Assembly: GCA_964385615.1 (NCBI GenBank)
Contig: CAYLPP010000010.1
Span: 21,565-85,564 of the forward strand
Length of the DNA: 64,000 nt
Reading direction: 5' to 3'
Source of the DNA: an uncultured bacterium
Lineage (GTDB): Bacteria > Omnitrophota > Omnitrophia > Omnitrophales > Aquincolibacteriaceae
Shown here: piece after piece, positions 5,578 to 53,809 of the stretch
Layout: the number at the start of each line of letters is the position of its first letter
How positions within the stretch are numbered: position 1 is the first letter of the stretch
The notes under the pieces: model-generated
What the model saw: the letters and a program-made list of their open reading frames with translations, nothing else
Databases searched by the model: none
What the model was told of the DNA's origin: nothing
Position numbers and translations under genes: made by a program

Positions 5578-5667
5578 AGTTTCGACTTAAACCGGGATTT
5601 CTTGACTGAGGTACGGCAATTATTATGGATTTTAGGTGTTCACGCAACTCTTTTTATAGCCAAAACT

Positions 5668-6051
5668 TCAGGCTTCAAAAGCATTGTGAATCAACTTGAA
5701 TTCAGGGGGGGTCTTGCCATCCCAGGTTACCGCCAGCACCTCGAAGGAAACCCGGGCTTCCTTGTCGGCAGTCTGCCTTAAATACCACTCTGCCAGCCGT
5801 ACCAGCTTTGCCTGCTTGGCTGGGGTTACCGCCTCTTGGGGAGATCCGAACCGGTTGCTGGAGCGGGTTTTGATCTCGATAAAAACCAGTCTTTTGTCTT
5901 TTTGGGCAACAACATCAATTTCACCCAGCGGACAGCGGAAATTCTTCTCTAAAATCCGGTACCCCTGGTCCAGAAGGTATTTCCACCCCAGAGTCTCTCC
6001 TCTTTGTCCCAAGCTTAAATGAAAAGGCCGTTTCGCGGGTCCGTATTTCAT
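5668..6051 (-). CDS. yraN: YraN-family (UPF0102) endonuclease-like protein
   Basis: GEIDVVAQKDKRLVFIEIKTRS core. The start is set at the internal MKYGP; with this start the gene overlaps the rnhB stop by 4 nt. Confidence 0.6.
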   Translation of the reverse strand: MKYGPAKRPFHLSLGQRGETLGWKYLLDQGYRILEKNFRCPLGEIDVVAQKDKRLVFIEIKTRSSNRFGSPQEAVTPAKQAKLVRLAEWYLRQTADKEARVSFEVLAVTWDGKTPPEFKLIHNAFEA

Positions 6052-7783: not shown

Positions 7784-7793
7784 GCAAGCCCTT

Positions 7794-8042
7794 TTACTTT
7801 TTGGAACGCTTGGAACGCTTGATCAGGCTCTTGACGGAATCGCTGACCTGAGCGCCGCTCTTGGTCCAGTATTCGAGGCGTTCCTGCTTAACCACGAATT
7901 TTTCCTGAGCCGGAAGCGGATCATAGTAACCGATCTCCTCGATGAAACGGCCGTCGCGCGGCATTTTGGCATCCGCGACAACAACACGCCACTGAAGGCG
8001 GTTCTTGGTCCCGAAACGTTTTAATCTGATTTTTACTGCCAT
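7794..8042 (-). CDS. rpsP: 30S ribosomal protein S16
   Basis: MAVKIRLKRFGTKNRLQWRVVVADAKMPRDGRFIEEIGYYDP. Confidence 0.9.
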   Translation of the reverse strand: MAVKIRLKRFGTKNRLQWRVVVADAKMPRDGRFIEEIGYYDPLPAQEKFVVKQERLEYWTKSGAQVSDSVKSLIKRSKRSKK

Positions 8043-8070
8043 TTTGATTCTCCTTTATTACTTTTATTAA

Positions 8071-9336
8071 TTACTCTTTTTCCCGGTGAATCGAAGCTCC
8101 GATCGCCGAAAACTTTTCTTCCAATTTTTCATAACCGCGGTCCAAATGGTATACGCGGTGAACTTCAGTCGTGCCTTCCGCCACCAAACCCGCCACCACG
8201 AGAGCGGCGCTGGCGCGAAGATCGGAAGCCATCACGGGCGCTCCCGACAAATTCTTAACCCCGTGCACAATCGCACTGGGACCTTCCAGAAAAATTTTTG
8301 ACCCCATGCGGTTCAATTCGCTGACATGCATGAACCGGTCCGGATAAATCTTTTCCGTAATCACGCTGATTCCCGGAGTGACCGCCATCAGCGCCATCAT
8401 CTGCGCCTGCAGGTCCGTAGGAAAACCGGGGTACGGAAGCGTCGTCACATCGACAGCTTTAAGCTTTCCGCTGCGCTTCACGCGGATAGTGCTCTTGCCT
8501 TTCTGAATCGTAACGCCCGCCTGCTTTAACTTATCAATGACCGCGTTCTGATGCGAAGGTTCCGTTTTCTTAATCAAAACGTCTCCGCCCGTCATCGCGG
8601 CCGCGAAAACATAGGTTCCGGTTTCAATCCGGTCCGGAATAATCGAGTATCGTGTTCCGTGAAGCTTTTTGACGCCTTCAATCGTCACAATCGGCGAACC
8701 TTCACCTTCAATTCGCGCGCCCATCTTCTTCAGAAACCTGGCCAGGTCTACAACCTCAGGTTCGCAAGCCGCGTTTTCAATCTGCGTCACGCCTTGAGCG
8801 AGCGTAGCGGCCATCATGACGTTTCCGGTGGCCAGCACCGAAGAACCAAAAGCCCCGCCCAAAAAAATGTCGGTTCCGCGAAGTTTTTTTAAAACCTTGG
8901 CGTGCACATACCCGTGCTGAATTTCAGATTTCGCGCCGAGTGCTTCAAGCCCCTTCAAATGCAGGTCGATCGGGCGTGAACCAATAATACATCCGCCGGG
9001 TACTGAAACTTCAGCCCGCCCCAAACGGGCGATCAGCGGACCCAGTACGCAGATCGAAGCGCGCATCGTGCTGACCAGCTTGTAGGGCGCTACCGGATTC
9101 AAATTTTTTCCGGGCTTAATAATGACCCGGCCTTTATCAAACTGAGCTTTACAGCCAAGCGCCCGAAGGAGCTTCAGCATGGTCTGAATGTCCCTTAAAT
9201 CGGGAACATTCTCAAGAATCGTTTCTTCTTCTGAAAGAAGCGCGGCCGCCATAATCGGCAGCGCGGAATTCTTGGCGCCGGAAATCTCGACTTCGCCCCT
9301 TAATTTCCGTCCGCCCTCAATAACGATCTTATCCAT
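8071..9336 (-). CDS. murA: UDP-N-acetylglucosamine 1-carboxyvinyltransferase
   Basis: MDKIVIEGGRKLRGEVEISGAKNSALPIMAAALL is a typical MurA N-terminus; the protein is 421 aa. Confidence 0.9.
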   Translation of the reverse strand: MDKIVIEGGRKLRGEVEISGAKNSALPIMAAALLSEEETILENVPDLRDIQTMLKLLRALGCKAQFDKGRVIIKPGKNLNPVAPYKLVSTMRASICVLGPLIARLGRAEVSVPGGCIIGSRPIDLHLKGLEALGAKSEIQHGYVHAKVLKKLRGTDIFLGGAFGSSVLATGNVMMAATLAQGVTQIENAACEPEVVDLARFLKKMGARIEGEGSPIVTIEGVKKLHGTRYSIIPDRIETGTYVFAAAMTGGDVLIKKTEPSHQNAVIDKLKQAGVTIQKGKSTIRVKRSGKLKAVDVTTLPYPGFPTDLQAQMMALMAVTPGISVITEKIYPDRFMHVSELNRMGSKIFLEGPSAIVHGVKNLSGAPVMASDLRASAALVVAGLVAEGTTEVHRVYHLDRGYEKLEEKFSAIGASIHREKE

Positions 9337-23742: not shown

Positions 23743-25868
<2,126 letters not shown>

Positions 25869-26265
25869 ATCGGTTTAACCATAAACGCTGGCGCCGGATT
25901 CTCAGTTCAGGCTCTACCCGAAACCGTACATCCGGAAGCCGGCCCTCTTCAAATAAAACAGCCTGCACTTCTCTCGTTTCTGACGCTCTGAGCACAAGGG
26001 TGATGTCTTTTCTCAAAACCCGAATAGGCAAATCTCCCTTAGGGGCTGTTTCATCATAAAAAACAGCCTGCGCCCGAAGTACCACCTCGCGGGGTTCTTC
26101 AGTAGCATTCACAACTTTTCCGGTCACTTTATATTGAAACGGCTGGGTCTGCTGAAGGCTGACATTATCAACGGAGACTTCACCGAAGGCTTTGAGCGTT
26201 GAAACAAAACCCGCGAATAAAAGAACAGTGATTCCTAAAATTTTTATTTTTTCTAATTTCATATT

Positions 26266-26991
26266 TTAAAAACTTAGAACCGCATGGCTGTCTTGCCCGG
26301 AAATGACGCAGCGGATTTTTCCGCGCCCGTCACGCCTGGCTTCGGCTAGCCCAGCCAAAGCCCGTTCGATCAACTGTTCCCGGCTTTCGCCCGCGTGATA
26401 GGCGGTAAGCCCGGCGCTGAAACTGCAATCGAGCCTTTCCTGCGCCTGAGCTAACAACCGTTGAATAAATTTTTCCGAACGGACCAAGTCCGTGTGCGGA
26501 AGTAAAATATAAAACTCATCGCCTTCCCGCCGGGCCAGCAAATCCGTAATCCGGACACTGGCGCGTAAAAACCCGGCGAACCTCTGAAGCGTTTCCGGCC
26601 CGCGGTTTTTGAGATCTAAGAGGCAAAGCGTGGCGGGATAATGATACCGCCCTGCGCGGCGCATTTCTGTTTCCAGCAGCTTTTCAAAATGAAGCCGGTT
26701 AAAAAGCCCTGTCTGAAGATCGTGATTCACCGCACGGTCAAACCCCATCCAGAAAAACCGGGCAGAAAAAATCATAACCCAGAAAATCAGGTTAACGGCC
26801 TGAAGCCCCATCAGCAAAGGTTCTTTGAGGCATTCCTGAATAACGGAGTCAAGCGACCGGGTTCCAAAACCCAGCCAGAGCATAAACGCGAGCTGGCTTA
26901 AAAGCGCGGCAATAAGAAAAAAACTTTCGGCCTGGATCAGCTGAATGCGTCTTTCGAAAAGAGTCGGAACTTCTTTATCGCGGATGCGCAT
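26266..26991 (-). CDS. Membrane-anchored GGDEF-domain protein with a variant EGDEF signature
   Basis: Two to three N-terminal TM helices, then DLQTGLFNR...LLDLKNRG...RREGDEFYILL. This is a GGDEF-type domain with an E-G-D-E-F active-site motif. Confidence 0.7.
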   Translation of the reverse strand: MRIRDKEVPTLFERRIQLIQAESFFLIAALLSQLAFMLWLGFGTRSLDSVIQECLKEPLLMGLQAVNLIFWVMIFSARFFWMGFDRAVNHDLQTGLFNRLHFEKLLETEMRRAGRYHYPATLCLLDLKNRGPETLQRFAGFLRASVRITDLLARREGDEFYILLPHTDLVRSEKFIQRLLAQAQERLDCSFSAGLTAYHAGESREQLIERALAGLAEARRDGRGKIRCVISGQDSHAVLSF

Positions 26992-27048: not shown

Positions 27049-28215
27049 TTACTGAAGCGCTTCTTTTAAAGCTTCAAGCAAGAACCGGATATCCCCTTCA
27101 TTGTGAGCCGCGGAAGCCGTAACTCGAAGCCTGGCCTTACCTTTCGGCACCGTCGGATACCTGACCGCGGGCACCAGAACCCCCCGGCTGAGCAGCTTTT
27201 CAGATACCGCTAAAGCTTTTTCTTCCGTTCCCAAAATGACCGGAAGAATCGGGGAAGCATTTCCTTCAGGAATTTCGATCCCCAGACTTTGAAAACCTTT
27301 TTTCAGCCTTTCCGCGTTAGCCCAAAGTTTTAAACGGAGAGCGGGTTCTTCTTTCATAACATCAAAGGCTTCGTGGGCGGCACGGCACACCGCGGGAGGA
27401 AGCGCCGTGGCAAAAATAAACGGCCTGGAAAAATTAATCAGATACTCGACCGTTTGAATGGAGGCCGCCGCAAAACCGCCGATCAAACCCGCCGCTTTCG
27501 ACAAAGTTCCGGTAATGACGTCCACTTTCGCGCAAAGATTTTGATCAATAGCCGGGTTTCCCTGCGGATCGGGAAAAACACCCGTTACATGCGCGTCATC
27601 CAGGACAAGCAAGGTATTGTATTTTTCTTTCAGCCGGACAAGCTCGGAAATATCGGCAAGATCACCATCCATACTGAAAACGGTATCAGAGACCAGAATT
27701 TTCTTTGCGTGCTCTGAAATTTTCAGAATTTCCTCCGCCCGCTCATAATTTTTGTGAGGAAACACGCGGATTTCCGCGCCGGATAAACGGGCACCGTCAA
27801 CCAGTGACGCGTGGCAGAGTTTGTCCATCAGGATCAAATCTCCTTCGCCGGCCAGCGCGCTTAAAACTCCAAGATTCGCGAGATAGCCCGCGCTGAACAA
27901 TAGCGCGTTTTCTTTGTGCTTATAACCGGCAATCTTTTTTTCAAGCCTGACGTGATCCTCTGAGTGACCCGAGATCAGCTGAGCGGCTCCGGAACCCGCG
28001 CCGGTCTCCTGAATCGCTTGGCCAAAAGCCTGAGTAACGCGCGGATGATGCGTCAATCCCAGGTAGTCATTCCCGCAGAAAAGAAGGATTTCACGGCCTT
28101 CGTGAAGGGCTCTGACGGCGCTGACAGGCTGAAGCCCGCGCAGTTTCCGGTAGAGGTTTTTTTCACGGACTTCACGGAGTTCTTCTTCAATAAAATTTGT
28201 CATTTTTGAGTTCAA
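27049..28215 (-). CDS. bioF: 8-amino-7-oxononanoate synthase (alpha-oxoamine synthase family)
   Basis: Aligns along its length with E. coli BioF, for example DTVFSMDGDLADISELV versus EGVFSMDGDSAPLAEIQ, and VRYPTVPKGKARLRVTASAAH versus [21 protein letters not shown]. 388 aa. Confidence 0.75.
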   Translation of the reverse strand: MNSKMTNFIEEELREVREKNLYRKLRGLQPVSAVRALHEGREILLFCGNDYLGLTHHPRVTQAFGQAIQETGAGSGAAQLISGHSEDHVRLEKKIAGYKHKENALLFSAGYLANLGVLSALAGEGDLILMDKLCHASLVDGARLSGAEIRVFPHKNYERAEEILKISEHAKKILVSDTVFSMDGDLADISELVRLKEKYNTLLVLDDAHVTGVFPDPQGNPAIDQNLCAKVDVITGTLSKAAGLIGGFAAASIQTVEYLINFSRPFIFATALPPAVCRAAHEAFDVMKEEPALRLKLWANAERLKKGFQSLGIEIPEGNASPILPVILGTEEKALAVSEKLLSRGVLVPAVRYPTVPKGKARLRVTASAAHNEGDIRFLLEALKEALQ

Positions 28216-29423
28216 ACCTTTCGAAGAAGAATCGCGGCTGCATGACCGCCGAATCCCAACGAGTAGGATAACGCTGTTTGAATTTTCGCGGGCCGGGCTT
28301 TTAGCGGTGTGTAATCCAGGTCACATTCCGGATCAGGTTTTTCCAGATTGGCCGTAGGCGGAACAAAACCGTATTCCATCGCTAAAAAAGCCGCGATCAC
28401 TTCAACGGCACCCGAAGCCCCGAGCATATGGCCGGTAATCGATTTAGTGGAAGTCATGGGAATTTTAAAAACTCCGCTGCCGAAGAATTTTTTAAGCTGG
28501 CAGGTTTCGTATACATCCCCAAGCTTGGTCGCGGTACCATGAAGATTAATATGCTGAATTTCAGACCGGCTGACCCCGGTTAATTCAAGCGCTTGTTCTA
28601 ACGTCCGTTGTAAGGTATCCCCGTCAGGATCAAATTGGACAGGATCATACGCGTCCATACCATAAGCTCCTCCGAGAATTTCTCCGTAGATTTTAGCGCC
28701 TCGAGCTTTAGCGCTTTCCAAAGTTTCCAAAAAAATCACCCCGCCCCCCTCACCGACCCCGAATCCATCCCGGCGCAAATCAAAAGGACGCATGGGACCG
28801 CGCGTAAGGGCTTTCATATTATGGTAAGCAGCCATCATGAGCGGTGTTACTGAAGCGTCGCTGGAACCCGCAAGGCAGTAATCCGTGTAGCCATCTGCGA
28901 CCATACGGGCACCCTCAAGAATCGAAGCCGTTCCCGTGGCGCAAGCCAGAACATAGCATTTAGCGGGACCTTGAAGTTTCCATTTCCGCGCGATCCATTG
29001 AGCGCCAAAATTCGGAACAGAATTACAGTAAATGCGCGCGCCCAGAATCGCACTTGGATTTTTTTTAAACCGCTCTGAGAAACGGTCAAGCGTGTGAACA
29101 CCGCCCTTGCTTGAACTAACCGCCATTCCAACACGATAAGGGTCTACTTGAGACGGATCAAACTTCGCGTCCCGCAAAGCTTCATCCGCGGCCGCAACCG
29201 CGTATTGAATGAATGGATCCAAAAGATGGGTGCCGTGCACATGGGGAACAAAATTTTTAACTTCGTAGGCGTATTTAGCGGGAAAATCTGGAATATCAAA
29301 AGAACGGATGGGACCTCCGCCATGATTACCCGCGCGAAGATTGCTCAGGAATTCAGGAAGACTGCTGCCCGCCGGACTGACCACGCCCATTCCGGTGGCA
29401 ACCACACGGCGCTTAAAACTCAT
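28212..29423 (-). CDS. Beta-ketoacyl-ACP synthase I/II-like (FabF/FabB family)
   Basis: 403 aa with a KAS I/II-type thiolase fold: active-site Cys region (ACATGT), HGTATKLGD and [14 protein letters not shown]. Overlaps bioF by 4 nt. Confidence 0.75.
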
Positions 29424-31237
29424 TTCCCCCCGTCGGCCTGGAGAAAAATATTCTGAGAGTTTAAAAACGAAAGGAGTTTTTTGGCGTTTTTTGAAGCGGA
29501 ATCTTTTTCACTTAAATCCAAATCAACAATACTGCTGCGGAATTGATTGGGACCCACGTTTACGATAAAAATACCGGAACGGTCCGTGACTTCCTGAAGA
29601 AGATGAAGTTCCTCATCATTCAAATTACTGGCTGTTGCCAGCACAATCAGGCCGGCATCCATTAAAATGTGCCCGACTTCGCCCAAACGGCGGACGTGTT
29701 CACGGCGTTTGGATTTATGCCCTTCAATATCCGCGTCTAACCCGCGAAGAAGATTTCCAATACCCAGAAAATAGGTTTTAGCTCCATTTTCAAAAAGAGT
29801 TTTTTCTACTTCCTTAGCGATCGTCTTTTTATCGACTCCCACTTTACCGGTCAAAAGAACCAGCTTGGGCTGGTGACCATACTTAGCCTCCCGCACCTTG
29901 GGTTCGACAACGCTGAAATCCCATTTCATTTCGCGTTCGTGCACCTGCTCGCGAACATCCGCCTGGTCATCGCGCACCAAAGCGGAAATAATTCCTCCGC
30001 CGGCAATATCGTATTGGTCTACGATCACAAACCGGCCCGTAGCTTCAATCGCATCCGCCGTATCAAAAGCAAGCGGGCGGGCGCATTCAAGCACGCACTG
30101 GGCAACATCATGACGCTCAATGATTTTCTTCTCAGCCTTCTTCAGGTCAGAAGCATCAATGATCTTTTTGATGGTTTTTAAATAAACAGGAACGGCAGCG
30201 CTTCCAATCTTGAGTTTGTATTCCTTGTCCTGAACCATTGGACTCTTGCCCATCCAGAAGATCTCAACCTGAATCAGCGGACCAACCAACGGCTGGGTTT
30301 CCTCCAGCTTGCACATAATATCGCCACGCTGAATATAAATCTGTTCTTTCAGGGTGAATCCAGCGCAATACCCGGCAACCATTTTTTTAGGTGACGGAGC
30401 ATTGAAAATTTCGATACTTTTAATTTCAGTCCGCTTGTTGGATGGCAGGAAGACGACCTTATCACCGACAGCAATGGTTCCCGCTTCAATCTTACCTGCC
30501 ACGATACGGCGGTCATCCCCCTCTTCCGTAAACTTGTAAACACCCTGCACCGGAAGACGAAAAGGTTTTTGCGCCAAGTCCGGAGCTTTTTCAAACAAGT
30601 CCAGAACCTCGAGCACGGATGGGCCTTTAAACCAGGAAAGATTTTTAGAGCTTTCGATCAGATTTTCACCGTGCATCGCGGCGAGCGGAATAAAAAACTT
30701 AGGCTCGACGCCGATCTGCTTCAGAAACTTGCGGTATTCAATCTGAATATCGTTAAAAGCTTTTTCGCTGTAATTAACCAAATCCATTTTGTTAACACAA
30801 ACCGCGATCTGGCGGATGCCAAGCATGGAAAGCAGGTAGCCGTGACGTTTAGAATTTTCCTGCACGCCTTCTTTAGCGTCAATAATCAAAAGAGCGGCTT
30901 CAGCTCGCGCGGCACCGCTAACCATGTTTTTCAGAAATTCAATGTGTCCGGGAGCATCGATAATAATGTATTCGCGTTTCTTGCTTTTAAAAAAGCAGCG
31001 GGCTGAATCAATCGTGATTCCCTGAGCTTTTTCATCTTTAAGAGCATCGAGAAGGAAAGCGTATTCGAAGGGTTTGGAATTGCGTTTGCACTCAGCGCGA
31101 ACCTGATCCAGCTTACCCTGAGGAAGCGAACCTGTATCCGCGAGCAAACGGCCAATGACCGTGCTTTTGCCATGGTCCACATGACCCACGATCACAATAT
31201 TCATTTTTAGGTCATTTTTTTCAGCCGTCTTAGACAT
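29420..31237 (-). CDS. cysN: Sulfate adenylyltransferase subunit 1 (CysN GTPase) fused to a C-terminal APS-kinase-like domain with degenerate catalytic motifs
   Basis: N-terminal GHVDHGKST / DAPGH / NKMD GTPase motifs. The C-terminal roughly 175 aa align to CysC ([22 protein letters not shown] versus [22 protein letters not shown]). The P-loop reads GKVGVDKKT instead of GLSGSGKST, and the LDGD motif is LGIG. Confidence 0.8.
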
Positions 31238-32112
31238 TACATGTATCCTTCTTTACGAAGAGTCTCAAGACCGCCGTCTTCAGCATCCTGCGCGCGGCCG
31301 GCACGCTCAGCAATGTTCGCAAATTTACCGGTCTTAAGTTCTTGAATAATCTCTTTAATATTTTTTGCCGTGGATTCCACTGAGGAAGTGCACGGGTAAC
31401 AGCCCAGGGAACGGTAACGTCTACCGGTACCTTGATCGAAATAAAGAGGAACTACCGGAATGTTTTCCGCATCGATATATTCCCAAATATCGAGCTCCGT
31501 CCAATCAAGCAAAGGATGAACCCGGATATGCGTTCCTGGCGCGAAATCCGTTTTGAACTGGTTCCAGAGTTCAGGCGGCTGATCGCCGATATTCCAGTCA
31601 TTGCGTTTATCGCGAGGAGAAAAATAGCGTTCTTTTGACCGGCTGCCTTCTTCATCGGAGCGCACGCCGACGATCACGCCGGTATAAGGTTCTTTATTTT
31701 CATCAACAACGTATTTTTTAAGCTCATGATCCATACGGTAACGCGTCCACTCGCCAGAAAGGGTTTTACGAAGAGCTTCCGTCTTTAAAGTTTTGCAGCA
31801 GCTGAGGCGATCGAGATTACCATCCGGATAGGTACGCTTTTCTCTAAGCGCATCCACGTTTTGTCCGTAAACCATGTTCAGCTTCCATTCCAGAGCGAGC
31901 CGGTCACGGTACTGAATCATTTCCGGGATCTTGTAGGCTGTATCAATATGAACAAGGGGAAAGGGCACGTGGCCGAAAAACGCCTTGCGGGCCAGCCAGA
32001 GTAGAACAGTGCTGTCTTTGCCGATCGACCAGAGCATCGCCAGGTTTTTAAAGTTGGCGTAGGCCTCGCGCAAAATATAAACGGATTGAGCTTCAATCTT
32101 TTCGAGATGTGT
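31237..32112 (-). CDS. cysD: Sulfate adenylyltransferase subunit 2
   Basis: [46 protein letters not shown] aligns to the E. coli CysD N-terminus. The ORF track extends it to a TTG at 32157. The stop overlaps the cysN start. Confidence 0.85.
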
Positions 32113-32204
32113 CATAAATGAAGAGTCCGTATTATAGCACAACTCCTGAATTTGCAAAGAGTTGTAATCATGAATCCCTATTGATGCGGTAGGGATTTAT
32201 CCGG

Positions 32205-32921
32205 CTAGATTTTTCGGGATTCGAAGTGAAAAACCTGTCCCGTGACCCCTTTCATGGCGTCTGAAGACAGATAAACCAGAAAATCCGCGACTTCTTCGGG
32301 GTCGGAAATCCGGCCAAGAGGGCTGGCTTCGGTCTGGTTGAGCAAGACCTGCTCAGGAAGATTTTCAGTCATAGAGGATTTCATGAACCCCGGATTGACC
32401 GCATTGACTAGAATGCTTTTTTTACCAAGTTCCTGGGCTAGAGATTTCGTCAAACCAATCAGTCCGGCCTTGGCGGCAGAATAATTCGAAATTCCGACAC
32501 CGCCTTGAATCGCGGCACGGCTGGTAATCATTAAAATTTTGGCCGGAGGCTCTGCCCGAAAAAGAGACAGCAAAAGTTTTTTCGTCAGGTAATACGGAGC
32601 TTTTAAATCCACCGCCATGACGTGATCCCATTCCTCTTCCGTCATATTCTGCAGAGTGTGGTCACGCACCGCGGCCGCATTATGAATCAAAACATCCAGC
32701 GTTTTTATTTTTTCTTTGAAGGTCTTAACAAAAGCGTCAATAGCGGCGGTGTCGGCAAGATTAAGGGGAAAGCCTTCCGCTCCGCTTTTTTGAAGCTCTT
32801 GTGCCTCAGTAAGATTTTGATGGTAGGTAAAAAAAACGCGGGCACCTGCCGCTGCCGCTTTTCGGACAAAGCAGCTTCCCAATCGGCTTGTGCCTCCCGT
32901 GATCAGGATATTTTTATTCAA
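32205..32921 (-). CDS. Short-chain dehydrogenase/reductase (FabG-like)
   Basis: TGGTSRLG Rossmann motif, NAA, and the YSAAKAG catalytic Tyr-x3-Lys; 238 aa. The start overlaps the bioB stop (ATGA). Confidence 0.75.
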   Translation of the reverse strand: MNKNILITGGTSRLGSCFVRKAAAAGARVFFTYHQNLTEAQELQKSGAEGFPLNLADTAAIDAFVKTFKEKIKTLDVLIHNAAAVRDHTLQNMTEEEWDHVMAVDLKAPYYLTKKLLLSLFRAEPPAKILMITSRAAIQGGVGISNYSAAKAGLIGLTKSLAQELGKKSILVNAVNPGFMKSSMTENLPEQVLLNQTEASPLGRISDPEEVADFLVYLSSDAMKGVTGQVFHFESRKI

Positions 32922-33943
32922 ACTTGCGCGGGATCTTTCTTGGAATCAGCCGCCGGGCGTTTTGCAGGTTCAAAGCCGGCGCGCTTCAGCATCTCAAAAT
33001 CGTCTTTCATAGGATTCGCAGAAGTCGTGAGATACCCGCCGACAATCAAACCATTCGCACCGCCCTTAAGCGACATTTCCTGGTATTGATTCCCCAAATT
33101 CACTTCCCGTCCTCCAGCCAGTTTAATGTTGGCTTTCGGATGGATAAACCGGTAAACGGCGATGGTTTTAACCATTTCCAGCGGATCGGGCGCCGGTACA
33201 TTTTCTAATGGCGTTCCAGGACGAGGGTTCAAGATATTCATCGGAAGACAATGAGGCGCGAAAGGCTTAAGTTCAAAAGCCAGTTTCACGCGGTCTTCAC
33301 GGGTTTCTCCCATGCCAAGAATTCCTCCGGAGCAAATTTCCATATTCCCGTCCTGAAGCATCTTCAAGGTTTCAAGTCTCTTATCATAAGTATGCGTGGT
33401 CACAATCTTAGGATAAAACTCGCGGGAACTCTGAAGGTTATCATTAAAACGGCGGACCCCCGTTTCCTTCAAGCGCTTCACCCGTTCTGGAGTCAAAAAT
33501 CCCAAAGACCCGTCTAAATTCATGGAGGTTTCCGCTTTTAGGCGCGTATAAATTTCGATGACCTGATCGAATTCTTTCTCAGACAATTCCCCGCCGCTGG
33601 TCACAACGCAGAAATTATGAGCACCTTTCTTTTCGAAATCCTTAGCCGCCGCGACCACTTCTTCGGTCGGCATCATCTGATAGCGGTTAACCCGGGTATC
33701 AAAACGCACGGACTGCGAACAAAAACCGCAATCTTCTCCGCAAAGATAACTCTTGGCGTTAATCAAAGAACAAAGTCCCGGCTCATTGGAGTTAAAATTA
33801 AAATTAATTTCCCGCGCCGCTTCCAAAAGCGGTTCCATGTCCGGCCCCGCCGGATCAATTTCGACGAGCTTCATCGCTTCTTCAAAAGAAACTTCTCCGC
33901 CGCCCAAAACTTTGTTTTTGAGTTCTTCGATCAAATTTTTCAT
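32918..33943 (-). CDS. bioB: Biotin synthase (radical SAM)
   Basis: CGEDCGFCSQS radical-SAM cluster motif. NDNLQSSREFYPKIVTTHTYDKRLETLKMLQDGNMEICSGGILGMGET aligns to E. coli BioB [47 protein letters not shown]. Confidence 0.8.
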   Translation of the reverse strand: MKNLIEELKNKVLGGGEVSFEEAMKLVEIDPAGPDMEPLLEAAREINFNFNSNEPGLCSLINAKSYLCGEDCGFCSQSVRFDTRVNRYQMMPTEEVVAAAKDFEKKGAHNFCVVTSGGELSEKEFDQVIEIYTRLKAETSMNLDGSLGFLTPERVKRLKETGVRRFNDNLQSSREFYPKIVTTHTYDKRLETLKMLQDGNMEICSGGILGMGETREDRVKLAFELKPFAPHCLPMNILNPRPGTPLENVPAPDPLEMVKTIAVYRFIHPKANIKLAGGREVNLGNQYQEMSLKGGANGLIVGGYLTTSANPMKDDFEMLKRAGFEPAKRPAADSKKDPAQV

Positions 33944-33950
33944 TTAATTT

Positions 33951-34193
33951 TCAGCCTTCAACAATATCCCCGATGACCGGATCCACACCCACGCCTTTTT
34001 CGCGCAAGCCTTTCTCGGCTTTGTCGATATCCGATTGGGCGCCTTCCAGTTCGATCGTGGCTTCACCCGCTTCATGCGAAATCTTGGCGCGGCGAATATT
34101 TAAGAGCAGGTTGTTGTCACGGGCCACCAGGTACATGATAGGCTCCTTGATCAATTTCTGAGGAAAAACGAGGTGGAACGCTTTTTTGGGCAT
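33951..34193 (-). CDS. Stand-alone NIL-domain (MetN C-terminal-like, ferredoxin-fold) protein
   Basis: About 80 aa resembling the C-terminal NIL domain of methionine-ABC ATPases (NNLLLNIRRAKI...GEATIELEG). The start is set at the internal Met to avoid overlap with the carrier gene. Confidence 0.45.
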   Translation of the reverse strand: MPKKAFHLVFPQKLIKEPIMYLVARDNNLLLNIRRAKISHEAGEATIELEGAQSDIDKAEKGLREKGVGVDPVIGDIVEG

Positions 34194-34194
34194 A

Positions 34195-34470
34195 TTACCC
34201 TCCGGCAATCGCGGGAACGATAGAAATCTGATCCCCGTCTTTCAGAGACGTTTCTTCCTGCTGAAGAAAGCGGATGTCTTCTTCGTTCAGGTAAACATTC
34301 ACGAACCGGCGAACTTTTCCGGTATCGTCGCAAAGGCGGTCCTTGATGCCTGGAAAATTTTTCTCGAGCTGATTGATCATGTCCTTGACGTTGCCGGCCT
34401 GGATATCAACTTCACCCTGATTATTGGTCAGTTTCTGAAGCGGTGTTGGAATTCTTACTTTAATCGCCAT
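34195..34470 (-). CDS. MoaD/ThiS/CysO-type sulfur-carrier protein ending in Gly-Gly
   Basis: 91 aa with a beta-grasp-sized ORF whose C-terminus is ...[10 protein letters not shown] followed by stop. It lies between the NIL protein and the PLP enzymes. Confidence 0.75.
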
Positions 34471-34500
34471 GAGATTTTCTCCCTTACTAAGATTTTTAAA

Positions 34501-35751
34501 TCAGACTTTAACAGCCGCGCCAGACCCCATAACCTTGCTGTCAAAAGAAGACAGATTCGGCTCAATAAGCGAGGGCTCGCCCACGCTGTCCTGGATCGCT
34601 TCCTGCGTTTTTAGACCATTTCCGGTAATCGCCAAAACGGTTGACCCGGTTTTCGGAATGACGCCCTGTTCAATCAGTTTCTTGGCGGTGGCTACGGTTA
34701 CTCCGCCGGCTGTTTCGGTGAAAATACCTTCAGTGCGCGCCAAAAGCTTGATGCCTTCCCGGATCTCATCATCTGAAACAATTCCGGCGGCGCCGCCGGA
34801 ATTTAAAATAACATCTTTCGCGTAATAACCATCGGCAGGATTGCCAATCGCGAGCGATTTGGCAATCGTTGAGGGTTTAACGGGCCGGATCACATCTGCT
34901 TTGGCTTGAATTGCGGTAGAAATCGGCGAACAGCCTTCAGGCTGAGCGCAGAAAACCTTGGTCTGCACTTTATTTTCGAGCAGGCCGAGTTTTTCAAATT
35001 CTTTTAAAGCTTTCCAGATTTTTGTGATTAAAGAACCGCTGGCAGCCGGAGCCACAATATGATCAGGGGCGCGCCAACCAAGCTGTTCAGCAATTTCAAA
35101 ACCCATAGTCTTGGAACCTTCAGCGTAATACGCGCGCAAATTAATATTCACAAAACCCCAACGGTACTTAGCCGCGATCTCAGCGCATAAACGGTTAACA
35201 TCGTCGTAGTTTCCGTTCACGGCGACCAGGTTCGGAGAATAAACAAGACTGGCGATAATCTTGGTTTTTTCCAACGTCGCCGGAATAAAAATGTAGCGCT
35301 TGAAACCCGCCCATGCCGCATTGGCGGCAACCGAATTCGCTAAATTGCCGGTTGAAGCGCAAGCAACCGTATCAAAACCCAATTCCCGGGCGCGGGACAA
35401 AGCGACTGCCACAACACGGTCTTTAAACGACCAGGTTGGATGGCATACAGAATCATCCTTAATATAGAGTTCTTTAACCCCAAGCTCACGGGCAAGCACA
35501 TCCGCTTTAACCAGCGGAGTAAACCCAGAATAAAAACCAGCGCTGGGCTCTCCGTCGATCGGCAGTAATTCACGGTAACGCCACAAACTTTTCGGACCCT
35601 TAAGAATTTTATCCCGGGTCAAAGTTTTTTTTATGCCGTCATAATCGTAAACCGCCTCAAGAGATCCAAAGCAGTACTCACAGACATAGAGCGCCTGCTT
35701 GGGAAATTCGCGGCCGCATTCACGGCATTTTAACGCTTTCAAGAAAGACAT
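34501..35751 (-). CDS. Threonine-synthase-family PLP enzyme with an N-terminal Cys4 zinc ribbon (candidate carrier-protein-dependent homocysteine synthase, or cysteate synthase)
   Basis: CRECG...CEYC ribbon, SFKDR PLP-lysine motif, and a ThrC-like fold over 416 aa. Its neighbours are the GG carrier and the APS/PAPS reductase. Confidence 0.6.
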   Translation of the reverse strand: MSFLKALKCRECGREFPKQALYVCEYCFGSLEAVYDYDGIKKTLTRDKILKGPKSLWRYRELLPIDGEPSAGFYSGFTPLVKADVLARELGVKELYIKDDSVCHPTWSFKDRVVAVALSRARELGFDTVACASTGNLANSVAANAAWAGFKRYIFIPATLEKTKIIASLVYSPNLVAVNGNYDDVNRLCAEIAAKYRWGFVNINLRAYYAEGSKTMGFEIAEQLGWRAPDHIVAPAASGSLITKIWKALKEFEKLGLLENKVQTKVFCAQPEGCSPISTAIQAKADVIRPVKPSTIAKSLAIGNPADGYYAKDVILNSGGAAGIVSDDEIREGIKLLARTEGIFTETAGGVTVATAKKLIEQGVIPKTGSTVLAITGNGLKTQEAIQDSVGEPSLIEPNLSSFDSKVMGSGAAVKV

Positions 35752-35765
35752 TTATCTCACCTTTT

Positions 35766-36722
35766 TTAGACTTTGAAGGCCTCATCCATGCTGAGATACC
35801 GTTCGCCGGTATCACAAATCACGGTGACCACATTTTTACCAGGACCAAGCTCACGGGCCAGTTGAAGCGCCGCCCATACGTTGGCACCCGCTGAAATACC
35901 GCACAGAAGCCCTTCTTTTGAAGCAAGCTCCATGGAAGTTTTCCAAGCATCCTGATCTTCAACCTGAATAACTTGATCGATCACATTACGGTTTAGAACT
36001 TCCGGAACAAAACCCGCGCCGATGCCCTGAATTTTATGTTTCCCCGGAGCACCTCCGGAAAGAACAGGCGAGGTTTTCGGCTCCACAGCAACGACTTTAA
36101 TAGCCGCGTTTTTCTTTTTGAATACTTCCCCGCAGCCTGTCACGGTTCCGCCGGTACCCACGCCAGCGACAAAACCATCCACTTTCCCATCCAGGGCTTC
36201 CCAGATTTCTTCAGCCGTGGTTTCACGGTGAATTTTAGGGTTGGCCGGATTGGCAAACTGCTGCGGAATAAAACTGTTTTTATTCTGTTCGGCAATTTCT
36301 TTAGCCTTGGCAATCGCGCCTTTCATGCCTTCCGCGCCCGGCGTCAGCACAAGCTCGGCTCCGTACCGCTTCAAAAGCTGACGGCGCTCCACGCTCATTG
36401 TTTCCGGCATAGTCAAAATCAAACGGTACCCTTTCACGGCGCAAACCAGCGCGAGACCAATTCCGGTATTGCCTGATGTAGGCTCTACAATGACCGTGTC
36501 TTTATTAATCAGCTTTTTTTCTTCCGCGTCCCGAATCATGCTTAAACAAATCCGGTCCTTAACGCTTCCCCCCGGATTAAAAGATTCCAGTTTTCCATAA
36601 ACCGCGGCCATTTGCGGATTCGCTAATTTATTGATGCGAACTAACGGAGTGTTACAGATCAACTCAAGCATATTAGAGGCTAATGCGGGCTTGCTGTGCT
36701 TCACGGTCGTCGTCATAATCAT
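35766..36722 (-). CDS. cysK: Cysteine synthase (O-acetylserine/O-phosphoserine sulfhydrylase; CysK/CysM family)
   Basis: SVKDR PLP lysine, [10 protein letters not shown] and GIGAGFVP motifs; 318 aa. Confidence 0.8.
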
Positions 36723-36730
36723 CTCCCTCG

Positions 36731-37489
36731 TTAAATATTTTCCGAATACCCGGCCTGGTCTTCTTTGGGTTCGGACATTTCTTTGGGTTTTACTTCTTTA
36801 AATGTGTGGATACCGCATTCCTTTTTACTCAACCCTGCCCAGCGCCCTGAACGCTCATCATCCCCGGCCTGAATGGGTTTGGTGCACGGCCAGCAGCCAA
36901 TACTTAAATACCCTTTTTCAAAAAGAGGGTGCTGAGGAATCTGGTGTTCCTTTAAATACCACCAGGCGTCGCGGGACGTAAAATTAGCCAGCGGGCTGAC
37001 TTTATAAAGACCGCCCTCATATTCTTCAAGAATCCGGATAGACTTCCTAAAGTCGGTTTGATGCCTGCGGATTCCGCTCATCCAGGCGTCATAATTTTTA
37101 AGCGCTTCGTCCAGAGGTTCAACTTTATTGATCTGACAGCACAAGTCCGGATTTTTCTCGTAAGGGACGCCGTCATAGCGCTTCACAACTTCCGCTTTCT
37201 TGGCCGGATCCGCCTTCAAATCGAGAACCTGGGTCAGGCCAAACATCTGCACCAGCCTGTTTTTGTATTCGAGCGTCTCAGGAAAATGATATCCGGTTTC
37301 CAAAAAAAGAACAGGAATATTTGGGTTGATCCGGCTAGCCATATGAAGCAGAACACCGCTTTCCGGCCCGAAGGAAGAAGTCATGGCAAAACGCGGGAAT
37401 TCTTTCACCGCCCAGGCAATAATCTCCTGCGGTTTTTTATTTTCAAAATCATCGTTAAATTTTTCAAGATCTATTTTGCTGATCAACAC
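36731..37489 (-). CDS. cysH: Adenylylsulfate/phosphoadenylylsulfate reductase, Fe-S-containing type
   Basis: PAPS_reduct fold with the CC pair ([10 protein letters not shown]) and CxxC (SIGCWPC) that ligate the [4Fe-4S] cluster of APS-reductase-type enzymes. Confidence 0.8.
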
Positions 37490-37497
37490 GGTTCCTT

Positions 37498-38367
37498 TTA
37501 GGCGGCAATGCGGCCGCGTAAACGCTCAACCATTTCATAACCCATCTGAATACCGTAACTGCCAAGATCCACGCCAGGTTTTTGCGTGCCGTGAAAATCG
37601 CTCCCGGCAGTTACAACCAAGTTATAGCGCTTGGCTATTTTTAGATAAACGCCCTGCTCTTCCATGTTCTGACAACTGTTATAAACTTCGATGCCGGCTA
37701 AACCGTATCCGGCCAGTTTTTCAATTTCACGGTCCAACTCACCGTCATTCAATTTCATTTGCTTCGGGTGAGCCACAGAAGCAACCCCGCCCGCTTTTTG
37801 AATTAATTCAATCGCTTCCCGGGCTTCAATGCGTCTTTTGTCAATATAAGCCGGCCGGCCTTTCGCCAGATACTTTTCAAAGGCTTCCCGGGCATCTTTA
37901 ACAACACCCTTTTTAACCAGAACTTTGGCAAAATGCGGGCGCCCGATCTGTTTAAGGTTTTCCGGCACTTCTTTCGAAGCCCCCGAAAAAGCTTCTTCAA
38001 GAACTTCCTTCATAGTAATTTCAATTCCCGACTCATTGAGTTTTCGAATGATGCCGGGATTTCTTTCACGCCGGGCGATCTGAATTTCTTCCAGTTTCCG
38101 CTTTAAATCCGGATGATTACGATCCAGAAAATAACCCAACACATGCAGTGTTCCGGGTTCAAAAACGGCGCTGAGCTCAATCCCCGGGACAAGCTCAATC
38201 CCTAATTTTTCAGCTTCCCGCGCACACGGTTCGTAACTCGACATCGTGTCATGATCTGTAACCGAAACACACGCCAGTTTTTTTTCCGCGCAATAGCGCA
38301 TCAACGCTTCCGGAGAGTAGCTCCCGTCAGAGTGCGTGGTGTGCATATGAAAATCCACAATTTTCAT
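37498..38367 (-). CDS. PHP-family phosphoesterase (candidate 3'-phosphoadenosine-5'-phosphate phosphatase)
   Basis: MKIVDFHMHTTHSDGS... with a PHP-domain His/Asp pattern (HxH, DHD). The start is set at the internal Met so that it abuts the cysC stop. It sits between cysC and cysH. Confidence 0.6.
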   Translation of the reverse strand: MKIVDFHMHTTHSDGSYSPEALMRYCAEKKLACVSVTDHDTMSSYEPCAREAEKLGIELVPGIELSAVFEPGTLHVLGYFLDRNHPDLKRKLEEIQIARRERNPGIIRKLNESGIEITMKEVLEEAFSGASKEVPENLKQIGRPHFAKVLVKKGVVKDAREAFEKYLAKGRPAYIDKRRIEAREAIELIQKAGGVASVAHPKQMKLNDGELDREIEKLAGYGLAGIEVYNSCQNMEEQGVYLKIAKRYNLVVTAGSDFHGTQKPGVDLGSYGIQMGYEMVERLRGRIAA

Positions 38368-38368
38368 A

Positions 38369-38947
38369 TCAAGCTTTAAACTGAAGGTACCCCAGAGCTT
38401 CCAGGCGGCTGACAACTTTCGCTGCGGACTGTTCCGGCGTTTCATTTTCGGTTTCGCAGACAACTTCAGGATTCAAAGGTTCTTCATAGGGGTCATCCAC
38501 GCCAGTCATGCCTTTCAGCTCGCCGGCTTTGGCTTTTTCATAAAGACCCTTCACGTCACGTTTTTGACATTCCGCCAAAGAAGTTTTCACAAAAACCTCG
38601 ACAAAATTTCCAATCATACGCCGGGCTTGATCCCGCGTTTCACGGTAAGGGGAAATGGCGGAGGAAACCGCCAAAACATCATTGCGGGTCAAAAGTTGGC
38701 AAACAAAAGCCAAGCGTTTGACATTTGTGTCCCGGTCTTCTCGGGAGAAACCCAAACCCTTGGTTAAATGAGTGCGAATCACGTCACCATCCAGCAACTC
38801 TGTTTTAAGACCCCACTTGCGGAATTGTCTCTCAAGAAGCCGGGCAATGGTGGATTTGCCGGAACTAGGCAGGCCGGTAAACCAAACCGTGACCCCCCGG
38901 GTCAGGCTGGCTTGATCACGTTTTAAGATGGCTGTATCAGTTGTCAT
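38369..38947 (-). CDS. cysC: Adenylylsulfate kinase
   Basis: VWFTGLPSSGKSTIARLL P-loop and the LDGDVIR motif; 192 aa. Confidence 0.88.
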   Translation of the reverse strand: MTTDTAILKRDQASLTRGVTVWFTGLPSSGKSTIARLLERQFRKWGLKTELLDGDVIRTHLTKGLGFSREDRDTNVKRLAFVCQLLTRNDVLAVSSAISPYRETRDQARRMIGNFVEVFVKTSLAECQKRDVKGLYEKAKAGELKGMTGVDDPYEEPLNPEVVCETENETPEQSAAKVVSRLEALGYLQFKA

Positions 38948-39006
38948 ATTCTTAACCCATTGAAATAAATAGACTTGTGAAAATTTATCTCTCGGGAGAG
39001 AAATTC

Positions 39007-39035
39007 ACTATACATCTAAAGAGAAAGGGTGTCAA
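39007..39035 (-). promoter_or_regulatory. Near-consensus sigma70-type promoter upstream of cysC
   Basis: On the minus strand the sequence reads TTGACA-17 nt-TATAGT. The ATG follows about 65 nt downstream, and the -35 element overlaps the tatC stop codon. Confidence 0.5.
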
Positions 39036-52990: not shown

Positions 52991-53349
52991 TTTACAAAAC
53001 CCGCTTTTCCTAAAAGCGTTTTCATTTCAAGTTCGATTTCCCTGTAAAGAGGCGGTTTCCCGGCTGTTTTAACTTTAAATAAAACGGCAGTGCCCGGAAT
53101 CCATCCGCTTTGATTCCTGCGAAAAGCTTCGCGTGTCCTTCTTTTCCAAAGATTCCTCACCGCGGCCCGAGAATCCACTTTCTTACTGACCATCACCGCG
53201 CATCGAGGAAGCGTCTTCCCTTCAGGTCCTGACTGATTTAAAACCCAAAGAGCAAACAGGCGTCCGCGAACAGGTTTGGCCTTATCAAAAAGGAGCTGAA
53301 ACTCCCGCTTCTTTCGGATTCTCTGGTTCCGGCCCAGATTCTGCTTCAC
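52987..53349 (-). CDS. rnpA: Ribonuclease P protein component
   Basis: Basic, about 120 aa, located between rpmH and yidD. Confidence 0.8.
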   Translation of the reverse strand: MKQNLGRNQRIRKKREFQLLFDKAKPVRGRLFALWVLNQSGPEGKTLPRCAVMVSKKVDSRAAVRNLWKRRTREAFRRNQSGWIPGTAVLFKVKTAGKPPLYREIELEMKTLLGKAGFVK

Positions 53350-53363
53350 GGAGAAGATGTTTG

Positions 53364-53513
53364 TTACGAAGGGTAAATCGGAATCAGCCGTTTACGGCCT
53401 TTTTTACGGCGGCGGCTTAACACTTTGCGTCCGCTTTTGGTACGCTTACGCGCCAAAAATCCATGCTTGGAGCGGCGTTTTCTTTTGGAAGGCTGGTATG
53501 TTCTTTTGCTCAC
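53364..53513 (-). CDS. rpmH: 50S ribosomal protein L34
   Basis: Reverse translation gives [49 protein letters not shown] (GTG start, 49 aa). Not in the ORF track because of its length. Confidence 0.85.
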
Positions 53514-53809
53514 TTTATCAACTCTTTTCGTCTTGCAAGTTTTGAACTCGATTCAAGTTACAGTTGCGTGATTATAACAGAATCGCCCATTGAGTCAATC
53601 CAGTACGATCGAACCCTTAAATGAACGGGTAAATAGCTTGGCATCACAGACCTCGCTTTGCAAAGCTGGATTAAAAAATAAAAAGAATTCCCGTGACTTT
53701 TTGGAAGGGCGGGGTAGAATGAGGCCTTAAATAGCTTGATTGAAATTGTTTATTTTTTGTTTATAACCTGTGTATAATTTTGGATTAATTGTTGATATCT
53801 TGTGGATAA
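53514..53809. promoter_or_regulatory. oriC / dnaA promoter region with DnaA boxes, at the point where the coding strand switches
   Basis: A perfect DnaA box, TGTGGATAA (the reverse complement of TTATCCACA), lies at 53801-53809 and overlaps the dnaA start. TGTGTATAA (8/9) is at 53769-53777 and TTATCAACT (7/9) at 53515. There is an AT-rich tract with TATAAT at 53773-53778. All genes left of this point are on the minus strand and all genes right of it on the plus strand. Confidence 0.6.

Follow-up and report, generated by a model that had tools for sequence, protein, structure and literature searches.

A probable MetM-type homocysteine synthase, with a sulfur carrier and a NIL-domain partner, in a sulfate-assimilation and biotin operon of Omnitrophota

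Protein thiocarboxylates and the Omnitrophota locus

The locus described here lies on the minus strand of a 64-kb stretch of DNA from an uncultured Omnitrophota bacterium (contig CAYLPP010000010.1; the whole stretch is called the window) and pairs a threonine synthase (ThrC)-like, pyridoxal phosphate (PLP)-dependent enzyme with a small sulfur carrier protein. Systems of this kind have been known since 2024, and sulfur neighbourhoods combining ThiS, JAB and E1 proteins since 2006 (PMC1779556). The closest described relative is the MetM/MetO route of Streptomyces albulus. As summarized in GapMind 2026 (Appendix 4, 10.1101/2024.10.14.618325, citing Hasebe et al. 2024), MetM is a ThrC homologue that uses O-phosphohomoserine and the thiocarboxylate of MetO to form homocysteine, with help from MoeZ and Mec. 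Another study notes an S-adenosylmethionine (SAM) riboswitch upstream of S. albulus metM and reports cyanobacterial homologues with a neighbouring metO-like gene (PMC12172450). By comparative analysis of sequence and gene context, we consider it likely that the ThrC-like enzyme of the window is a homocysteine synthase of the MetM type, embedded in an operon leading from sulfate to cysteine and homocysteine and joined by a NIL-domain partner. Three genes are central:

34501-35751, minus strand: ThrC-like PLP enzyme of the PALP family, with an N-terminal four-cysteine ribbon (CxxC-x12-CxxC)
34195-34470, minus strand: CysO/MetO-type sulfur carrier of 91 amino acids (PF02597, ThiS family), ending in AIAGG-stop
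33951-34193, minus strand: stand-alone NIL-domain protein of 80 amino acids (PF09383, 38.8 bits against a gathering score of 24)

The MetM/MetO system likewise consists of a ThiS/MoaD-type carrier and a PLP enzyme homologous to ThrC, for which threonine synthase is the usual annotation; its actinobacterial members have a SAM riboswitch, and the E1 (MoeZ) and the JAMM peptidase (Mec) are encoded elsewhere. The window pair differs in lying inside a sulfate-reduction and biotin operon, without a riboswitch. Its carrier ends exactly at the Gly-Gly and therefore needs no maturation. In addition, a NIL gene is translationally coupled to the window carrier, and summaries of the MetM/MetO pathway mention none.

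The CysO/CysM/Mec+ system of Mycobacterium tuberculosis is similar in other respects: CysO is the nearest solved carrier, a fold-type II PLP enzyme is adjacent, and a JAMM peptidase is present in the genome. However, the sulfhydrylase of the window is of the CysK1 type, not CysM, and its JAMM gene is not adjacent. With a ThrC-like enzyme as the partner of the carrier, homocysteine would be formed instead of cysteine. Homocysteine formation from a thiocarboxylate is also a feature of the HcyS/HcyD/HcyF/MetY cluster of Wolinella succinogenes and of the 'type 4e' ThiS-JAB-E1 neighbourhoods of Iyer et al. 2006 (PMC1779556), which share with the window a link to genes for adenylyl-sulfate (APS) kinase, 3'-phosphoadenylyl-sulfate (PAPS) reductase and ATP sulfurylase. 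Their enzyme is an O-acetylhomoserine sulfhydrylase of fold type I, encoded together with E1, JAB and sulfite reductase, whereas the window enzyme is ThrC-like. No O-acetylhomoserine sulfhydrylase (Cys_Met_Meta_PP) was found in the window, where the family gave a weak secondary match on BioF only.

Two further systems involve NIL domains. The DUF39 and NIL-ferredoxin pathway of methanogens and Desulfovibrio also joins a NIL domain to homocysteine as product (PMC5764234), and JGI annotation gives the name of that pathway to the NIL family of the window. That pathway is nevertheless unrelated: neither a DUF39 nor a COG2122 gene occurs in the window, the NIL protein of which lacks a ferredoxin domain. 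O-Phosphohomoserine is the substrate proposed here, whereas that of the DUF39 pathway is aspartate semialdehyde (PMC5764234). The window locus would be the second case, after this pathway, of a NIL domain tied to homocysteine formation. The other relative is the regulatory C2 domain of MetN (3DHX, 3DHW, 3TUI), which is homologous to the NIL protein and shares its N-I motif. In MetN the domain is part of an ATP-binding cassette ATPase; here it is free-standing or, in related loci, forms a C-terminal extension of a ubiquitin-like carrier. What sets the present locus and its relatives apart is the recurrent NIL partner with its carrier fusions, the breadth of the enzyme clade, and the conserved placement of the pair beside an atypical biotin synthase.

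A threonine synthase homologue apart from the canonical threonine synthases

Four active-site motifs separate the ThrC-like protein from the four solved threonine synthases used as reference. The first reads SFKDRV in the window and SFKDRG in the solved enzymes. The second is STGNLANSVAA, as opposed to STGNTSASAAAY (canonical STGNT), and the third is VNINLRAYYAEGSKT (VNxNLRxYYAEGSKT across the clade), as opposed to VNSVNPxRxEGQKT. The fourth is PAASGSLITK (clade PxASGSLxTK), where the solved enzymes have PVGNAGNITAYWK (PVGNAGN). None of the canonical motifs STGNT, NPxRxEGQKT and GNAGN occurs in the window protein, which has STGNL, NLRxYYAEGSKT and ASGSL in their places. Identity to the four solved enzymes is 33-38%, over alignments that begin at residue 53-57, past the zinc ribbon, as against 50-78% within the clade; homologues found behind a SAM riboswitch or beside a carrier are 50-54% identical to the window protein. 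A neighbour-joining tree places these proteins in a large clade, split from the canonical ThrCs and from other zinc-ribbon ThrC-like groups. Judged by its sequence, the window protein is not a canonical threonine synthase.

The clade is broad. A search of 1.8 billion cluster representatives, made without a profile, returned full-length relatives outside Omnitrophota at 50-59% identity, and a scan of one genome per GTDB species with patterns taken from the clade alignment gave at least 599 confirmed relatives. The best 80 of these, that is, only the closest (57-78% identical), were compared as loci with the 64-kb window; related loci bear L-numbers, of which L001, L003, L004, L010 and L011 are from Omnitrophota. 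The 80 loci come from about 15 phyla, among them Nitrospirota, Verrucomicrobiota, Planctomycetota, Cyanobacteriota, Actinomycetota, Chloroflexota, Nitrospinota, Thermodesulfobacteriota, Elusimicrobiota, Methylomirabilota and Aquificota. Across this range, a CysO-like carrier gene stands beside the ThrC-like enzyme in 75 of the 80.

A SAM-sensing riboswitch is a mark of methionine genes, not of threonine genes. SAM-I riboswitches (RF00162, 62-88 bits) were found directly 5' of homologues 50-65% identical to the window protein, at 15 loci in at least four phyla: L005, L007 and 13 of the 25 loci, drawn from the 80, that were given Rfam scans. The counts by phylum were 6/6 in Verrucomicrobiota, 4/4 in Planctomycetota, 2/3 in Actinomycetota, 1/4 in Chloroflexota, 0/6 in Cyanobacteria and 0/2 in Nitrospinota. 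In L005 (54% identical), the riboswitch (71.5 bits) is followed by the enzyme and then by a carrier with a 17-residue tail after the Gly-Gly; L007, a Micromonosporaceae metagenome-assembled genome (MAG; 51% identical), has a riboswitch of 80.7 bits directly upstream; and L009 (52% identical) shows the enzyme, the carrier and then the start of a NIL gene. A nhmmer search with two SAM riboswitch sequences gave no match. In Omnitrophota the ThrC-like gene is internal to its operon. Riboswitches and adjacent carriers in the same clade make the MetM/MetO route a fitting one for the window enzyme, so the analogy with MetM that the original prediction had drawn is upheld, for a protein that falls outside the bona fide threonine synthases.

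We infer, rather than prove, membership of the MetM clade, and the comparison with S. albulus MetM is indirect. It runs through actinomycete homologues that are 50-60% identical to the window protein and carry a SAM riboswitch, and through cyanobacterial homologues with adjacent carriers that match the gene pair of PMC12172450, a pair 51.6% identical to MetM (PMC12172450). PRK08197 was tried and rejected as a model for MetM: riboswitch-linked homologues also score under its cutoff, so NCBIfam has no dedicated MetM model. As a separate observation, the enzyme of the Omnitrophota locus L001 (10001-11242) retains a single one of the four cysteines of the zinc ribbon, having lost the other three (KSKGT...YVCEYDFS), so function does not depend on the ribbon everywhere.

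The carrier and its presumed charging and release

The carrier gene starts 30 nucleotides (nt) downstream of the ThrC-like gene. Its best match among solved structures is CysO of M. tuberculosis (3DWG_C, E 1.4e-18, full-length alignment), followed by a ThiS/MoaD carrier of Amycolatopsis (4N6E_B, E 6e-18); chains of the MoaD and SAMP types score far worse. These matches support the earlier proposal that sulfur-assimilation genes are joined here to a Gly-Gly carrier of the CysO/MetO type. No MoaE or thiamine genes were found near the carrier in the window. Among the 75 carriers of the related loci, 45 end in GG-stop, 19 have tails of 1-6 residues, eight are fused to NIL and one to ThiF; the remaining two have long tails that look like read-through artefacts.

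In other phyla the complete machinery can be found in one cluster. Across the 80 loci, ThiF or ThiF-rhodanese occurs in 22, a JAMM peptidase in 15 and a gene of the CysK/CysM family in 21, while a small sulfite-reductase-like protein is encoded in four. L029, for example, holds Rrf2, the enzyme, the small sulfite-reductase-like protein, a carrier-NIL fusion, ThiF, a CysM-like PALP protein, JAMM and DsrE-like proteins; the order in L025 is CysK, ThiF, enzyme, carrier, NIL, ThiF and JAMM, and in L034 PALP, JAMM, enzyme, carrier, NIL and ThiF-rhodanese. In L020, an Actinomycetota MAG, the carrier is fused to a ThiF-type E1 (355 amino acids) and a neighbouring CysK has a ThiS-like N-terminal extension (7235-8299 and 4834-5949, respectively). 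The same locus also contains a small sulfite-reductase-like gene, cysH, JAMM and a NIL gene.

A ThiF-type E1 and a sulfite reductase were not found in any reading frame of the 64-kb window, as had been noted before. Omnitrophota evidently keep E1 and JAMM elsewhere in the genome. One JAMM gene does lie within the window, where it had been predicted:

1331-1810, minus strand: JAMM/Prok-JAB peptidase (PF14464), with an intact HxH...S..D motif

JGI annotation names relatives of this peptidase '[CysO sulfur-carrier protein]-S-L-cysteine hydrolase', and in three relatives it is fused to a ThiS domain. The window peptidase is a candidate for hydrolysing conjugates of carrier and homocysteine, and a tie to the operon is plausible. 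Its gene overlaps an upstream gene for a HAD-family hydrolase by 4 nt (1331-2499, minus strand, in the window; 9300-10456 in L093, also from Omnitrophota), and in both places the pair is followed by genes resembling Alternative Complex III and by cytochrome oxidase genes.

The carrier might also, or instead, feed cysteine synthesis through the adjacent CysK, after the manner of CysO/CysM/Mec+, and so serve two PLP enzymes. The gene in question is:

35766-36722, minus strand: cysK, O-acetylserine sulfhydrylase of the A type (PALP; TIGR01139 459 bits against a cutoff of 351)

The CysK/CysM-family genes in the 21 loci just mentioned often stand beside ThiF and JAMM; CysK-type genes 58-64% identical to that of the window occur in Nitrospirota, Actinomycetota and Planctomycetia loci; and the ThiS-like extension of the L020 CysK points the same way. 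However, the window protein is an O-acetylserine sulfhydrylase A equivalog that fails the cysM models (302 and 297 bits, under cutoffs of 394 and 413), and among solved structures M. tuberculosis CysK1 is closest to it (2Q3B, E 2.5e-111), with CysM not among the matches. Many of the other loci hold a distinct PALP protein just 38-41% identical to it, and cysK adjoins cysH, as in ordinary sulfide-dependent operons. A cysteine-directed role for the carrier is accordingly doubtful. By sequence, the window CysK belongs to the ordinary O-acetylserine sulfhydrylases and carrier-dependent cysteine synthesis is not supported. Since CysK passes the cysK model and fails those for cysM, the part of the original prediction that compared it with CysM is left without sequence support, and it is the MetM half of the comparison that remains.

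A recurrent NIL partner

The ATG of the NIL gene lies 1 nt past the carrier stop codon, so the GGAGGG of the carrier's Gly-Gly codons doubles as the ribosome-binding site of NIL. The NIL family of Omnitrophota comprises 249 relatives, the best 120 of which are 67-93% identical, and they lie on the same contigs as the enzyme. Beyond this phylum, a NIL gene is present in 41 of the 80 loci, and in 39 of them the NIL and carrier genes are fused, overlap or are no more than about 180 nt apart. NIL is usually downstream of the carrier, and in Chloroflexota it stands between enzyme and carrier. At least 11 phyla have it, while none of the 22 cyanobacterial loci does. An 88-amino-acid neighbour in L005 that was considered as NIL-like was set aside because it resembles an antitoxin instead.

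Eight loci, from Planctomycetia, Omnitrophota, Thermodesulfobacteriota and Acidulodesulfobacterium among others, encode carrier-NIL fusions with no stop codon between the two parts: ...IIPAIAGG is followed by a linker of 4-30 residues and then by the NIL domain. They are found at:

L014, 6334-6903
L015, 3032-3472
L022, 7288-7800
L023, 7158-7787
L029, 3020-3532
L030, 7276-7788
L033, 6336-6848
L082, 3326-3853

As long as NIL stayed attached behind the Gly-Gly, the carrier would be barred from thiocarboxylation, and cleavage would have to come first. A JAMM gene is inside seven of the eight fusion loci. In this respect the fused proteins may be said to resemble ubiquitin precursors.

The family profile of NIL matches the C2 domain of E. 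coli MetN (3DHX, E 2.4e-9). Its nearly invariant N32 and its invariant I33 align with N295 and I296 of MetN, and N295 is the residue whose mutation abolishes trans-inhibition by methionine. A literature search with incomplete journal coverage found no link of NIL to ThiS-type carriers or to the MetM/MetO pathway. The NIL protein appears to be an undescribed element of the carrier-linked homocysteine route, a role suggested by its adjacency to, or fusion with, the carrier and by its homology to the methionine-binding domain of MetN. Of the conserved partners it is the least expected, a point not made in the original prediction. It is possible, and we put it forward tentatively, that NIL is a third component of thiocarboxylate-dependent homocysteine synthesis, made either as a fusion cut by JAMM or as a coupled protein, which would bind methionine or homocysteine and gate the carrier. 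Its action as a carrier-associated sensor or cap responding to methionine or homocysteine is the most speculative element of the proposal. If it is true, NIL would provide feedback control at the protein level, parallel to the SAM riboswitch; in any case, its presence with the carrier in about half of the loci is a testable lead on the regulation or maturation of ubiquitin-like sulfur carriers.

A proposed route from sulfate to cysteine and homocysteine

The genes upstream of the enzyme, together with two genes further downstream, supply the steps of sulfate activation and reduction:

38369-38947, minus strand: cysC, APS kinase (PF01583, E 8e-60; PRK00889 251 bits against a cutoff of 244)
37498-38367, minus strand: PHP-family phosphoesterase (PF02811)
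36731-37489, minus strand: cysH, (P)APS reductase of the Fe-S-cluster type (PF01507; PRK02090 262.7 bits against a cutoff of 154)
31237-32157, minus strand: cysD, small subunit of sulfate adenylyltransferase (PRK05253 349.7 bits against a cutoff of 195)
29420-31237, minus strand: cysN, GTPase subunit of sulfate adenylyltransferase (TIGR02034 338.5 bits against a cutoff of 336; GTP_EFTU and partial APS_kinase domains)

As expected from family membership, CysDN would make APS, CysC would convert it to PAPS, and the Fe-S-type CysH, whose translation contains CC...CxxC and a C-terminal ECGIH, would free sulfite and 3'-phosphoadenosine 5'-phosphate (pAp). The PHP phosphoesterase would destroy the pAp, and CysK would combine O-acetylserine with sulfide into cysteine; no gene of the window accounts for the reduction of sulfite to sulfide. 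Comparative genomics suggests that, on the ThrC-like enzyme, O-phosphohomoserine would lose its phosphate and gain the C-terminal thiocarboxylate of the carrier. A JAMM hydrolase would probably assist in setting homocysteine free, and an E1-like adenylyltransferase from elsewhere in the genome would recharge the carrier. In the most speculative step, NIL would dock on the carrier or on MetM, sense methionine or homocysteine and so gate the flow of sulfur. The original prediction had spoken of two beta-replacement enzymes, a description that does not suit the pair, as an enzyme of the ThrC type would carry out gamma-replacement.

Several points weigh against this assignment. The NCBIfam equivalog model for thrC, TIGR00260, accepts the ThrC-like protein (267 bits against a cutoff of 167). 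The neighbour-joining tree has no resolution inside the clade, where a carrier-less subgroup (L008 type, 44% identity) is nested, and membership of that clade is argued through indirect links to S. albulus MetM. A SAM riboswitch is found neither in the window nor in L001 and L003 of Omnitrophota. A cyanobacterial member of the same kind of gene pair is reported to have had threonine synthase and deaminase activity in vitro and to have given no clear homocysteine (PMC12172450). The carrier cycle cannot be closed from the window, which has no E1 (ThiF/MoeZ) and no sulfite reductase and whose JAMM gene is 32 kb away, in a HAD and respiratory context that recurs in L093. Finally, the role of NIL is deduced solely from adjacency, fusion and homology.

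Some of these points would suit the idea that the ThrC-like gene is simply the threonine synthase of the organism and that the carrier serves molybdopterin, tRNA thiolation or cysteine instead: the TIGR00260 score, the in vitro activities of the cyanobacterial homologue, the public annotation, in which all relatives are named 'threonine synthase', and the fact that no second thrC was seen within the 64-kb window. On the other hand, the four active-site motifs are unlike those of all solved ThrCs, the 15 riboswitches bespeak methionine control, the carrier's adjacency persists in 75 of 80 loci from about 15 phyla, and genes of other sulfur pathways (MoaE, thiamine synthesis) are missing from the carrier's vicinity. 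We therefore regard an ordinary threonine synthase as unlikely and retain the MetM-type homocysteine synthase. As proteins of the clade are called 'threonine synthase' in every named record seen, current models of methionine synthesis may be wrong for Omnitrophota, Nitrospirota, Verrucomicrobiota, Planctomycetota, Cyanobacteria and other phyla. The four sequence motifs, the adjacent CysO-like carrier and the SAM riboswitches are offered as markers of the clade.

The PHP gene has its true start at the ATG at 38367, 1 nt after the cysC stop codon, and not at the TTG at 38463. The best NCBIfam model for its product, 3',5'-nucleoside bisphosphate phosphatase, gives 218 bits, under the cutoff of 400, so this function counts as a predicted one. 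Its solved relatives are 7UG9, a 5'-3' exoribonuclease, and 2YB1, both with E of about 1e-35; the latter is the 3',5'-bisphosphate nucleotidase of Chromobacterium. As the gene sits between cysC and cysH, the protein is probably a pAp phosphatase that clears the by-product of CysH. For cysD, the probable start is the ATG at 32115, and a promoter-like site of its own (32158-32131) lies in an intergenic gap of about 89 nt; site and gap fit the view of cysDN as an inserted module. The C-terminus of CysN contains the first half only of an APS-kinase domain, with a degenerate P-loop (GKVGVDKKT), and this truncation may explain why a separate cysC is retained.

Biotin synthase next to the carrier

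Past NIL, the array continues with genes of biotin synthesis:

32918-33943, minus strand: bioB, biotin synthase (TIGR00433 362 bits), 7 nt downstream of NIL
32205-32921, minus strand: FabG-like short-chain dehydrogenase/reductase (SDR) gene, under the equivalog cutoff
28212-29423, minus strand: FabF-like beta-ketoacyl synthase (KAS) gene, under the equivalog cutoff

The nearest solved relatives of BioB are the Type II (4Fe-5S) enzymes 8VDW and 8VCW, ahead of E. coli BioB. The ligand pattern of its auxiliary cluster, C-C-D-C-R, matches neither type of BioB: there is a Cys at the position of Type II Cys52, a Cys at that of Type II Ser106 (C97 in E. coli), and an Asp where both types hold a Cys (C128 in E. 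coli). The pattern is shared by five Omnitrophota loci, namely the window, L001 (11633-12706), L003 (11646-12695), L010 (10243-11292) and L011 (10279-11331), and in all five bioB directly follows the carrier, with or without NIL in between.

This placement raises the question of whether the carrier, together with NIL, supplies sulfur to the downstream BioB and so regenerates its auxiliary Fe-S cluster. The carrier-(NIL)-bioB order holds in every Omnitrophota locus seen, the ligand pattern is unusual, and the closest relatives are Type II BioBs, whose physiological sulfur donor is reported as unknown (PMC10813225). However, the adjacency is confined to one phylum with strong synteny, and gene order by itself may account for it. 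In other phyla it is the ThrC-like enzyme, not bioB, that accompanies the carrier: no bioB cluster turned up among the 30 most widespread neighbour clusters, about a dozen of them annotated. We know of no precedent for a carrier feeding BioB. As a rival reading, such a supply is very unlikely, and a carrier that resupplies BioB in addition to the MetM-type enzyme is a more remote extension of the proposal.

The FabF-like and FabG-like genes, both within the biotin cluster, resemble a Desulfovibrio-type insertion for pimelate synthesis. These genes bear on one further reading, in which the ThrC-like enzyme would be a cysteate synthase that forms cysteate from O-phosphoserine and the sulfite made by CysH. 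A zinc-ribbon ThrC paralogue does stand beside sulfite-producing genes, and an SDR gene and a gene of the BioF/SPT family lie downstream. Against this, the cysteate synthase model TIGR03844 reaches 72 of the 325 bits that its cutoff demands, and the CapA-type model gives a weak match to CysK only. SDR, KAS and BioF belong to the biotin cluster with bioB, bioA and bioD, and both the SAM riboswitches and the neighbouring carrier speak for methionine. Extremely improbable on these grounds, the cysteate synthase, and with it the idea of a capnine-like sulfonolipid, was rejected on the model scores and the bioB, bioA and bioD context. Between bioF and bioA (25837-26991, minus strand) lie a gene resembling GGDEF diguanylate cyclases and one for a 141-amino-acid protein without a Pfam match; the former is kept in L001, L003 and L011, while a small protein without a Pfam match follows it in L011 only.

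Gene order, promoter and surroundings

Seven open reading frames, cysC, PHP, cysH, cysK, ThrC-like, carrier and NIL, run head to tail on the minus strand. This order and the family labels agree with the original prediction. Other details of it need amendment: the spacers, put at 8 to 30 nt, do reach 30 nt, but two of them are 1 nt (in order 1, 8, 8, 14, 30 and 1 nt), and the two PLP genes, said to flank the carrier, both lie upstream of it. In the same direction, the array goes on past NIL, where the original prediction had stopped, with bioB, the FabG-like SDR gene, cysD, cysN, the FabF-like KAS gene and bioF, and then with the GGDEF gene, the gene for the 141-amino-acid protein, bioA, bioD and mnmA. 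The operon thus also codes for sulfate adenylyltransferase and is interleaved with biotin synthesis genes.

A promoter had been predicted ahead of cysC, and a site of this kind was found:

39007-39035, minus strand: promoter-like site TTGACA-17-TATAGT upstream of cysC, matching 11 of 12 consensus positions

Both hexamers, -35 and -10, are kept in L001, L003 and L004; as to function, the site is a consensus match only. An imperfect palindrome, GTGAATTTCTCTCCCGAGAGATAAATTTTCAC, follows the -10 element ahead of the cysC start, at about 38979-39010 (minus strand). As an operator it was rejected, since its inner arms are not kept in L001 or L003.

The 120 best matches to the ThrC-like protein share 73-100% identity with it, and all those with a taxon name are from Candidatus Omnitrophica/Omnitrophota. 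In this phylum the synteny comprises TatC, cysC, cysH, cysK, the ThrC-like gene, the carrier, bioB, SDR, KAS, bioF, GGDEF, bioA, bioD and mnmA. The core order cysC-cysH-cysK-ThrC-like-carrier-bioB recurs in L001, L003, L004, L010 and L011; chance does not explain the arrangement, given this recurrence and that of the ThrC-like/carrier pair across phyla (75 of 80 loci). PHP, NIL and cysDN are variable accessories, a feature that the original prediction had overlooked: L001 and L003 lack all three, L010 has the PHP and NIL genes, and L011 has NIL and cysDN but no PHP gene.

Elsewhere the window holds housekeeping DNA that surrounds the replication origin and includes dnaA, dnaN, gyrBA, rnpA, yidC, mnmG and parAB. 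In the origin region (53349-53802), one strand carries rnpA, yidC, mnmG and parAB and the opposite strand dnaA, dnaN and gyrBA, and the GC skew switches sign near 53-54 kb of the window.

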